Shown: one piece after another, positions 56,783 to 57,220 of the stretch
Layout: each line of letters starts with the position of its first letter
Position numbering within the stretch: position 1 is the stretch's first letter
Assembly: GCA_044892525.1 (NCBI GenBank)
Contig: CM097885.1
Span: 1,302,001 to 1,366,000, forward strand
Length of the DNA stretch: 64,000 nt
Reading direction: 5' to 3'
Source: Schmidtea polychroa
Taxonomy: Eukaryota
Notes under the pieces: model-generated
Databases searched by the model: none
Seen by the model: the letters and a program-made list of their open reading frames with translations, nothing else
What the model was told of the DNA's origin: nothing
Translations under genes and position numbers: made by a program

Positions 56783-57220
56783 ATGTTAGCAAATATAAAT
56801 TATCGAGGAAATTTTGATGTATCGAATATGAGATTCCCACCAGGGAAACCCCAGCAAATTATCGATAGAAGTGGGAAATATCCGATCATATTTTTCAAGA
56901 CTGGTAAATGCCGAATCATGGGATGTAAGAAACCTTTGGATATTAATAAATTACAATATCGAATAAATAATATTACAATCCAATCAATTACCGTTACTAT
57001 GGATATGGGACATAGTATCAATCTATATAACATGTCGAAAAAATGTGATTGTATGTTTGAACCGGAATTGTTTCCGGCACTAAGACTATTAAAATATAAC
57101 CCTATATGTGTCAACGTGTTTGCTAGTGGAAAGGTTGTCATGTTGGGGTTGAGAAATTTTGAGTATAGAGAATTTGTTGACAATGTTCGAAATGAGATAA
57201 TTTCATTGGTCGATTTCTAA
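56783..57220 (+). CDS. Divergent TATA-box-binding protein (TBP) homolog, 145 aa, intact
   Basis: Two TBP repeats: NINY..IIFFKTGKCRIMGCK and IQSITVTMDMGHSINL..FEPELFPAL..VFASGKVVMLG. Confidence 0.9.
   Translation: MLANINYRGNFDVSNMRFPPGKPQQIIDRSGKYPIIFFKTGKCRIMGCKKPLDINKLQYRINNITIQSITVTMDMGHSINLYNMSKKCDCMFEPELFPALRLLKYNPICVNVFASGKVVMLGLRNFEYREFVDNVRNEIISLVDF

Follow-up and report, generated by a model that had tools for sequence, protein, structure and literature searches.

A stretch of 64,000 nucleotides (nt) of the Schmidtea polychroa genome (assembly GCA_044892525.1, contig CM097885.1, positions 1,302,001 to 1,366,000; the whole stretch is called the window below) contains a Maverick/polinton, element B, with an intact open reading frame (ORF) of 145 amino acids (aa). 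The Pfam match, the profile comparison, the fold and the genomic context support its identification as a Maverick-borne compact TATA-binding protein (TBP). Our analysis showed that the compact TBP is an accessory gene fixed in one Maverick/polinton lineage, where it is conserved and selected, and that the genes of this lineage carry two classes of TATA-type box, which share one fixed distance from the start codons, are split by gene class and differ at positions 7-8. The variant box on capsid-side genes suggests that the element directs part of its own transcription.

56783..57220, + strand: intact compact TBP ORF, 145 aa (Pfam, Foldseek, VIA-align and structural model)

Identity of the compact TBP

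The 145-aa ORF lies in the inverted duplicate arm of element B and its translation contains FKTGK (aa 38-42), FEPELFP (aa 92-98) and FASGK (aa 113-117). A sequence-only reading of the window had proposed a TBP with both repeats, including FEPELFP and F(A/K)(S/T)GK, and Pfam, the PDB search and the structural model all agreed with this proposal. The match to the Pfam TBP family (PF00352) passed the gathering threshold with 56 bits (cut-off 22.9; E 3.7e-15), and TBPs made up 35 of the 37 distinct sequences listed in a PDB sequence search (E 5.5e-10 to 2e-5), the remaining two being unrelated and at chance level (E 0.58 and 2). All sequence-level matches were confined to aa ~55-131, corresponding to repeat 2, and repeat 1 is therefore recognisable by profile comparison and fold only. 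Profile comparison of the compact family with seven cellular-type TBPs (hhalign) gave a probability of 99.5% and E 3.3e-23, with query positions 31-143 placed on TBP positions 50-173. A six-frame hidden Markov model (HMM) scan found two TBP-like stretches only in the window, the ORF at 56783..57220 (+) and a second stretch at 48233-48625 (-). A PHROGs search with the compact TBP and neighbouring ORFs returned nothing meaningful, and the names of TBP cluster members gave no function besides an automatic 'TBP' label.

Fold and key residues

An AlphaFold (AF2) model built from an alignment of 59 family members had high confidence (predicted local distance difference test, pLDDT, 94.8; predicted template modelling score, pTM, 0.83). 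The 44 Foldseek matches in the PDB at E<=1e-3 were TBPs without exception, the following match having E 0.064. VIA-align placed the model on whole TBP cores with Z 12.0-12.7 and a root-mean-square deviation (rmsd) of ~2.7-3.0 A over 141-145 of 145 residues, the best being 7egb_P (Z 12.7, rmsd 2.7 A, 143/145 residues aligned), and 38 TBP rows at Z>=10.6 stood ahead of the first unrelated row at Z 6.6. Superposition of model residues 1-145 on 1ytb_A 66-240 (Z 12.3) covered the two-repeat saddle, and both repeats claimed from the sequence were thus recovered by profile and by structure.

The two repeats differ in completeness in the model. Residues 62-142 form a complete TBP repeat with five strands and helices 81-85 and 129-142 (E62-74, H81-85, E90-92, E99-102, E109-113, E117-123, H129-142), while the first 60 residues consist of strands 2-10, 25-28, 35-38 and 42-48 without a helix as long as four residues, and no long helix precedes residue 61. 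The saddle accordingly counts 4 + 5 strands in comparison to 5 + 5 in TBP, and the two convex-side helices of a TBP repeat are present in repeat 2 (H81-85, H129-142) and missing from repeat 1. When the family alignment and the cellular-type alignment were merged with MAFFT, the segment 'LANINYRG' fell on strand S1, and helices H1 and H2 of repeat 1 were gaps; the inter-repeat helix was likewise a gap in hhalign. Loss of much of the inter-repeat helix (H2) had been proposed by the sequence-only reading and was borne out, whereas the additional loss of H1 of repeat 1 goes beyond what it had claimed.

Classical TBP has four DNA-intercalating phenylalanines, two per repeat, and the E-P-E-L stirrup of cellular TBP contacts TFIIB. 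Three of the four phenylalanines are present in the compact TBP, as hhalign pairs F38, F97 and F113 with intercalating positions, and the first is aligned with the family-invariant P23 in the MAFFT merge, this being the least certain step as it falls in the low-identity N-terminal region. The C-terminal stirrup is retained as EPELFPAL, in which E95 and F97 are invariant. Across the 59 sequences 14 columns are invariant (P23, F38, C43, R44, M46, G47, L81, E95, F97, P107, C109, N111, F113, G122), with E93, P94, P98, A99, L100 and R101 nearly so, such that the whole of E93-P94-E95-L96-F97-P98 is invariant or nearly so. The expectations that three phenylalanines and the EPE stirrup are kept and that the first phenylalanine is lost were therefore correct.

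Compared with cellular TBP (PF00352; PDB 1ytb, 1c9b, 7egb), the compact TBP shares the saddle over both repeats, the three intercalating phenylalanines, the EPELFP stirrup and the F-x-S/T-G-K strands at 22-26% identity. It differs in length (145 aa in comparison to a core of ~175-180 aa), in lacking H1, H2 and apparently also strand S2 of repeat 1, in having an invariant proline in place of the first phenylalanine, and in the invariant C43, R44 and M46, where cellular TBPs have hydrophobic or Thr residues. Since repeat 2 is complete and repeat 1 is reduced to beta strands without both helices, the model indicates a genuine but asymmetric TBP, whose sequence amounts to about 1.5 repeats but whose fold gives a complete saddle.

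Family, selection and phylogeny

A word-indexed search identified 108 relatives of the compact TBP, mostly 144-160 aa in length and all from metagenome-type sources, with 38-97% identity over 66-100% of the query (mostly >90% coverage); an exhaustive all-against-all search gave 718 matches at E<=1e-3, including 109 at E<=1e-10. Eighty metagenome loci were used for the analysis of promoters, and ten of the longer ones for a Pfam scan of gene context. In IMG/VR the TBP alignment found one distant locus (25% identity), and the PolB query and the ATPase alignment found no matches. In the 781-Mb S. polychroa genome itself at least 4161 first-look candidate copies of the compact TBP were counted and a PF00352 scan flagged 2998 candidates, all genome copy numbers being lower bounds. 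Every one of the 150 scored genome matches was full-length, stop-free and 98-100% identical, and the gene was present in all 29 other genome copies of the element that were sampled. The same genome holds three further compact TBP subfamilies (170, 156 and 154 aa; loci L128-L133), each followed by a small ORF, and one of these is likewise head-to-head with an ATPase gene. Directly 3' of the TBP gene in the window is a 98-aa Cys-rich ORF (57416-57712, +), whose homologue was found only in one of these host subfamilies (L130:211-465, E 2.6e-33) and which has no Pfam or PHROGs match.

The ratio of non-synonymous to synonymous substitution (dN/dS) was calculated by the Nei-Gojobori method for the 42 of 84 coding sequences that passed an intactness motif filter, giving 861 pairs, of which those with 0.05<dS<1.5 were taken as usable. 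All 68 usable pairs had dN/dS values of 0.05-0.47 (median 0.29), indicating that the compact TBP family is under purifying selection. The 29 genome copies held 16 synonymous and one non-synonymous distinct variants (pN/pS), a count that was not used as evidence because these copies had been picked by protein score.

A maximum likelihood (ML) tree of 43 rows and 152 columns was built from 25 of the 108 relatives, the window copy, the three host subfamilies, four long-insert forms, two intron-less host TBP paralogues and eight cellular-type TBPs; it did not include the intron-split host TBP loci (L112-L114, L117). The compact clade was split from all cellular-type TBPs, including the host paralogues, by a long branch with 100/100 support, setting this mobile-element gene apart from cellular TBP. 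The host canonical TBP locus is intron-split (124 bits) and looks animal-type, and at least five further host TBP-family loci were found (L112-L117, L131), including intron-less paralogues of 214 aa and 202 aa and a TRF2-like locus (L115) on the cellular side of the tree. A recent neutral capture of host TBP absent from sibling elements, named beforehand as the outcome that would overturn the proposal, is excluded, because the gene occurs in the sibling copies, in the subfamilies and in the 80 metagenome loci, is under purifying selection and is separated from host TBPs at 100/100. The profile and structure searches, the phylogeny and the survey of siblings with dN/dS that had been suggested as checks all came out on the side of a genuine, maintained element gene.

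Two classes of promoter box

In an unbiased k-mer count of 166 upstream regions from 18 TBP-bearing loci, ATAAACA was found in 52 regions where 5.5 were expected, and TATAWA showed a positional peak at -40..-31. In the 319 upstream regions of the 80 metagenome loci ATAAACA started at -50..-28 in 62 regions in the sense orientation and in 2 in the antisense orientation, with a peak at -37..-35; shuffled regions gave a mean of 2.15 and none of 500 shuffles reached 62. TATAAAA occurred in only five of these 319 regions. The logo of the variant box reads Y-A-T-A-A-A-C-A-(A/T).

For counts by gene class, genes were clustered at 80% identity, and clusters with an ATAAACA box were distributed as follows.

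ATPase: 8/12
Protease: 7/11
PLA2: 4/7
Capsid-position gene of ~403 aa (p403): 4/6
TBP: 1/52
Single-strand DNA-binding (SSB)-like: 2/16
Integrase: 0/10
PolB: 0/4

When pooled, 23/36 virion-side clusters carried the box in comparison to 3/82 clusters of TBP, SSB-like, integrase and PolB genes (Fisher p 2e-12, a value to be read with the clusters not being phylogenetically independent). The canonical TATAWA[AGT], on the other hand, was found at -60..-20 of the TBP genes in 23/52 clusters (antisense: 6) with its peak at -40..-31, and 23 was reached in none of 500 shuffles (mean 7.1). The bases that follow TATAWA are mostly TA or AG at TBP genes and CA or CG at virion-side genes.

Both classes of box are present in element B:

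56749..56757, + strand: canonical TATA box TATATAAAG, 34 nt upstream of the TBP ATG, with a minus-strand twin at 48624-48632
48665..48672, + strand: variant box TATAAACA, with the ATAAACA core starting 32 nt upstream of the ATPase ATG (48698)
49263..49269, + strand: ATAAACA box, 19 nt upstream of a 355-aa ORF (49282)
50666..50672, + strand: ATAAACA box, 41 nt upstream of the ORF at 50707

The ORF at 50707 occupies the capsid position and has 216 aa in the window copy in comparison to 407 aa in a typical copy. Of the ten ATAAACA sites in the typical genome copy, nine share the strand of the virion genes and directly precede virion-side ORFs, whereas the terminal repeats contain no box at all. 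A role for the box as a replication origin or terminal-repeat element was considered and, on this last ground, rejected. In the TBP-less element A, a second Maverick in the window, the ATAAACA box was upstream of none of 11 genes.

Organization of element B and its relatives

The arrangement of the two TBP copies in the window is explained by the following features.

48230..48598, - strand: twin TBP copy in the native position, head-to-head with the ATPase gene, frame broken
48698..49336, + strand: A32-like packaging ATPase ORF fused to a chromo-like remnant (Pfam; comparison with fuller copies)
41702..48667: left arm of an inverted repeat, its inner part (~45030-48667) being the native TBP-side arm of the element
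56714..63997: right arm of this inverted repeat of at least 7 kb, 99-100% identical to 41702-48667

The TBP copies are the innermost genes of both arms, and the repeat ends ~70 nt upstream of each ATG. The twin copy at 48230..48598 (-) is identical to the intact copy over 121 residues and is then frameshifted, a short G run differing in length by one base. The intact window copy has F126 where all 29 other sampled genome copies have L126. The native context, with TBP head-to-head with the A32-like ATPase, was found in 28 of these 29 copies, and homology extends to window position 49055. In comparison to three fuller copies, the window element has a 1.74-kb deletion between 49054 and 49055, with loss of the C-terminal part of the ATPase and of the integrase core, and it is cut at 56718, inside a polymerase-side ORF, at the start of the inverted duplicate of the TBP-side arm. 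Element B is a rearranged copy with an internal deletion, a truncation and an inverted duplicate of one arm, a rearrangement that could be biological or an assembly artefact. The head-to-head arrangement with the virion gene block (48598 versus 48698) noted from the sequence does exist, but it belongs to the frameshifted twin, as the coordinates 56783..57220 are those of the intact copy in the secondary duplicate.

A typical genome copy of the TBP-bearing element is ~18.7 kb long with terminal inverted repeats of ~0.7-1.2 kb, and encodes a RING protein, an 808-aa EndoVII-type ORF in the PolB position, a C5 protease, the 407-aa capsid-position ORF, an integrase and an ATPase, with the 145-aa TBP on the strand opposite to the virion genes. 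When the carrier was examined for the Maverick/polinton hallmarks, PolB, rve integrase, A32-like ATPase, adenain-type protease and terminal inverted repeats were all found. The rve match in the typical copy, at 27.5 bits, is below cut-off; in metagenome relatives the Pfam scores were 77-98 bits for PolB and 46-57 bits for rve. A capsid gene was not recognised by Pfam in the TBP-bearing lineage. In all ten longer metagenome loci whose ORFs were scanned with Pfam the TBP gene had Maverick genes around it, namely pPolB carrying an EndoVII domain, rve integrase (in many cases with a chromodomain), C5 protease, PLA2 and A32-like ATPase. As a rule the TBP gene has the same direction as the ATPase gene and lies two genes upstream of it. 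In more distant metagenome relatives (L055, L049 and L067) PolB is very long (1405-1586 aa), with C2H2 zinc fingers in an N-terminal extension ahead of the EndoVII and polymerase domains.

The following neighbour of the TBP gene was modelled.

58011..58421, + strand: 136-aa OB-fold ORF, with a twin at 46965-47375 (-); homologues adjoin the TBP gene in 20 metagenome loci

The model of this ORF (pLDDT 89.7) has an OB fold, with best matches to T7 gp2.5, the phage Enc34 SSB, DUF2815 and African swine fever virus (ASFV) CP312R at middling scores (Z 6.9-7.2; Foldseek E 0.07). This makes it a candidate for a gp2.5-like single-strand DNA-binding protein serving protein-primed replication. It had also been considered as a partner of the TBP, an idea that was dropped as its OB fold is nearest to T7 gp2.5-type single-strand DNA-binding proteins.

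Other features of the window were observed as well. Twin 103-aa ORFs (45841-46152, +; 59234-59545, -) have a weak match to the Bcl-2 family (E 0.008-0.009; 17 bits in comparison to a cut-off of 31.4) that is also present in the typical genome copy. Short periodic repeat arrays of 9-12 nt belonging to two families (D1 and D2) occupy 52323-54600, 57693-57915 and 60200-60455, some of them in open frames. Element A (6247-18599) represents a second, unrelated Maverick family, with a fusion of PLA2 and rve, an A32 ATPase, a PolB split over two ORFs and a double-jelly-roll capsid that Pfam recognises; the six-frame HMM scan of the window found no TBP gene in it.

Comparison with known systems

TRF2/TBPL1 resembles the compact TBP as a TBP paralogue that is divergent in its DNA-contact residues, but TRF2 keeps both full repeats and is not known to bind TATA, whereas the compact TBP has three of the four phenylalanines and lacks the repeat-1 helices. 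Among viral proteins the nearest fold matches were TBP-like proteins of giant viruses and asfarviruses (Heterosigma akashiwo virus, mimivirids and a B263R homologue), with 21 BFVD matches at E<=1e-3 (best 9e-8). These proteins are all at least 186 aa long, only 7-20% identical and have fuller repeats, such that the compact TBP is closer to cellular TBPs (22-26%), and they serve viruses that possess their own RNA polymerase.

By analogy, the nearest functional counterpart would be the TBP-like late factor of beta- and gammaherpesviruses (BcRF1/ORF24/UL87), which is drawn to a TATT box (PMC7162547; see also PMC4893493). The likeness would consist of a virus-encoded TBP fold and a variant TATA-type box at late (virion) genes, the function on the Maverick side being presumed, and BcRF1 and U58 were weak fold matches to the compact TBP model (E 0.03 and 0.0065). 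The herpesvirus factors differ in being several-fold larger, in acting within a six-protein complex and in their box, which is TATT in comparison to YATAAACA here; no homologues of the partners in this complex were identified for the compact TBP.

The statement that viral TBPs are best known from giant viruses agrees with the fold matches, but a TBP had already been labelled once in polinton-type viruses, namely on the map of a MELD virus with an adintovirus-like PolB (Starrett et al. 2021, Figure 5 legend, PMC8502044). This is a label only, and the portion of that text available gives no architecture, family survey or promoter analysis. Sporadic TBP genes also occur in unrelated mirusvirus-like elements, according to PMC10675990. 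A full-text literature search on polintons/Mavericks found no description of the compact TBP architecture, its family or a YATAAACA promoter class. As far as this search goes, prior art for a polinton-type TBP is one figure-legend label and the promoter-class split is new here.

A possible transcription programme and its alternatives

We judge the chances to be about even that the compact TBP is an element-encoded late-promoter TBP, which reads YATAAACA at virion-side genes via host TFIIB and Pol II while host TBP reads the canonical box. Under this proposal host TBP would read the canonical TATAWAWR box at the element's TBP gene, and the compact TBP so made would bind TATA-type boxes within the element itself, with a preference for YATAAACA, ~35 nt upstream of the ATG of the ATPase, protease, PLA2 and capsid-position genes, where the conserved stirrup may recruit host TFIIB and Pol II. 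This would constitute a two-step programme, first host TBP on the element TBP gene and then element TBP on the virion genes, and possibly an early-to-late switch.

In TBP-DNA crystals the 3' half of the box lies under the N-terminal repeat, and there is a kink at each end made by one Phe pair. Because the changes in the compact family are concentrated in the N-terminal repeat, an altered reading of the 3' half can be proposed, and the remodelled first half-repeat (P23; C43, R44, M46) would line up with the box difference at positions 7-8 (C-A/G in comparison to W-A/G). The H1/H2 surface of repeat 1 in cellular TBP is used by TFIIA, TAF1-TAND2, Mot1 and NC2, and its loss predicts insensitivity to those regulators and thus an escape from host control. 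We put forward only tentatively, and with more doubt than expectation, the fullest form of this programme, a herpesvirus-like two-stage Maverick cycle in which the smallest TBP described would use its one-Phe, helix-less half-repeat to read a C-containing box and fire packaging, protease, PLA2 and capsid genes via TFIIB, beyond control by TFIIA, TAF1, Mot1 and NC2.

Several points weigh against a late-promoter TBP. Assignment to gene classes used position and Pfam, and the 'capsid' (p403 and the 407-aa ORF) is putative. The comparison with TBP-less Mavericks consists of one element (A) with 11 genes. In some relatives (L016) the gene pair that includes TBP itself carries the variant box, and an early/late split is consequently not absolute. 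The box is only ~35 nt from the ATG, and with a start site ~30 nt downstream of the box almost no 5' leader would be left. Finally, YATAAACA fits the forkhead-type consensus RYAAAYA, and papers on FOXF1 and LET-381/FoxF reportedly contain this string.

The likeliest of the alternatives, although we consider it unlikely, is that the compact TBP is a functional TBP substitute on ordinary TATA boxes of the element or the host and YATAAACA is read by a forkhead-type host factor or another element protein, such as the C2H2 zinc-finger ORF of relatives. The retained TBP fold and stirrup, the canonical TATA boxes present in the element, the forkhead-like core of the motif and a zf-C2H2 ORF conserved in the L057, L067 and L075 relatives are all compatible with it. 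However, the variant box and the canonical TATA of the TBP genes lie at one and the same narrowly defined distance from the ATG, which for the variant box fits a core-promoter element better than an enhancer-type site, and the first half-repeat is invariant in its altered form across the family, which argues for a changed rather than an ordinary specificity.

An element-specific initiation factor or a TBP decoy had been offered as the two functions from the outset, and the promoter-class result favours the initiation factor. A decoy or dominant-negative TBP would occupy host TATA boxes or titrate TFIIB without assembling a full complex, either favouring element expression or blunting a host response, and we regard this as improbable. 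The absence of the repeat-1 helices H1 and H2, which serve as docking surfaces in cellular TBP, together with the loss of one intercalating phenylalanine and the retention of the stirrup, could be interpreted in this way, but an oriented, position-fixed and element-wide variant box at the virion genes would be left unexplained, and a concave half-repeat so strongly conserved throughout suggests that DNA is read specifically.

Decidedly improbable in our view is a DNA-bending architectural protein that acts in protein-primed replication, integration or packaging instead of transcription. Such a role would suit the candidate single-strand DNA-binding protein that adjoins TBP in 20 loci and the position of TBP in the arm opposite the virion genes, but not the absence of ATAAACA from the terminal repeats of the typical copy, the location of 9/10 boxes upstream of virion-side ORFs or the conservation of a TFIIB-type stirrup. 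That the gene is a decaying passenger, a functionless fragment of captured host TBP, has next to no chance of being true despite the frameshift in one of the two window copies and the rearrangement of the window element, as it is refuted at the family level by dN/dS (0.05-0.47 in 68/68 usable pairs) and by the tree (100/100 split from host TBP paralogues), with 150/150 scored genome matches full-length and stop-free and 14 columns invariant across 59 sequences.

Implications for Maverick biology

Mavericks/polintons are usually described as wholly dependent on host transcription, and their virophage relatives copy the late promoters of giant-virus helpers. If a late-promoter TBP is correct, a 'transposon' would be self-sufficient in core-promoter recognition and would encode a natural minimal TBP with altered box specificity. 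The family can be regarded as a natural deletion experiment, in which a TBP without repeat-1 helices and with three phenylalanines has been conserved across members of 38-97% identity and goes together with a box distinguished from TATAAAAG at positions 7-8 only. With such a protein it would also be understandable that the very many copies of the element can be switched as a unit. A Maverick lineage with its own core-promoter recognition and a temporal gene programme would then provide further evidence for a genuine viral life cycle.

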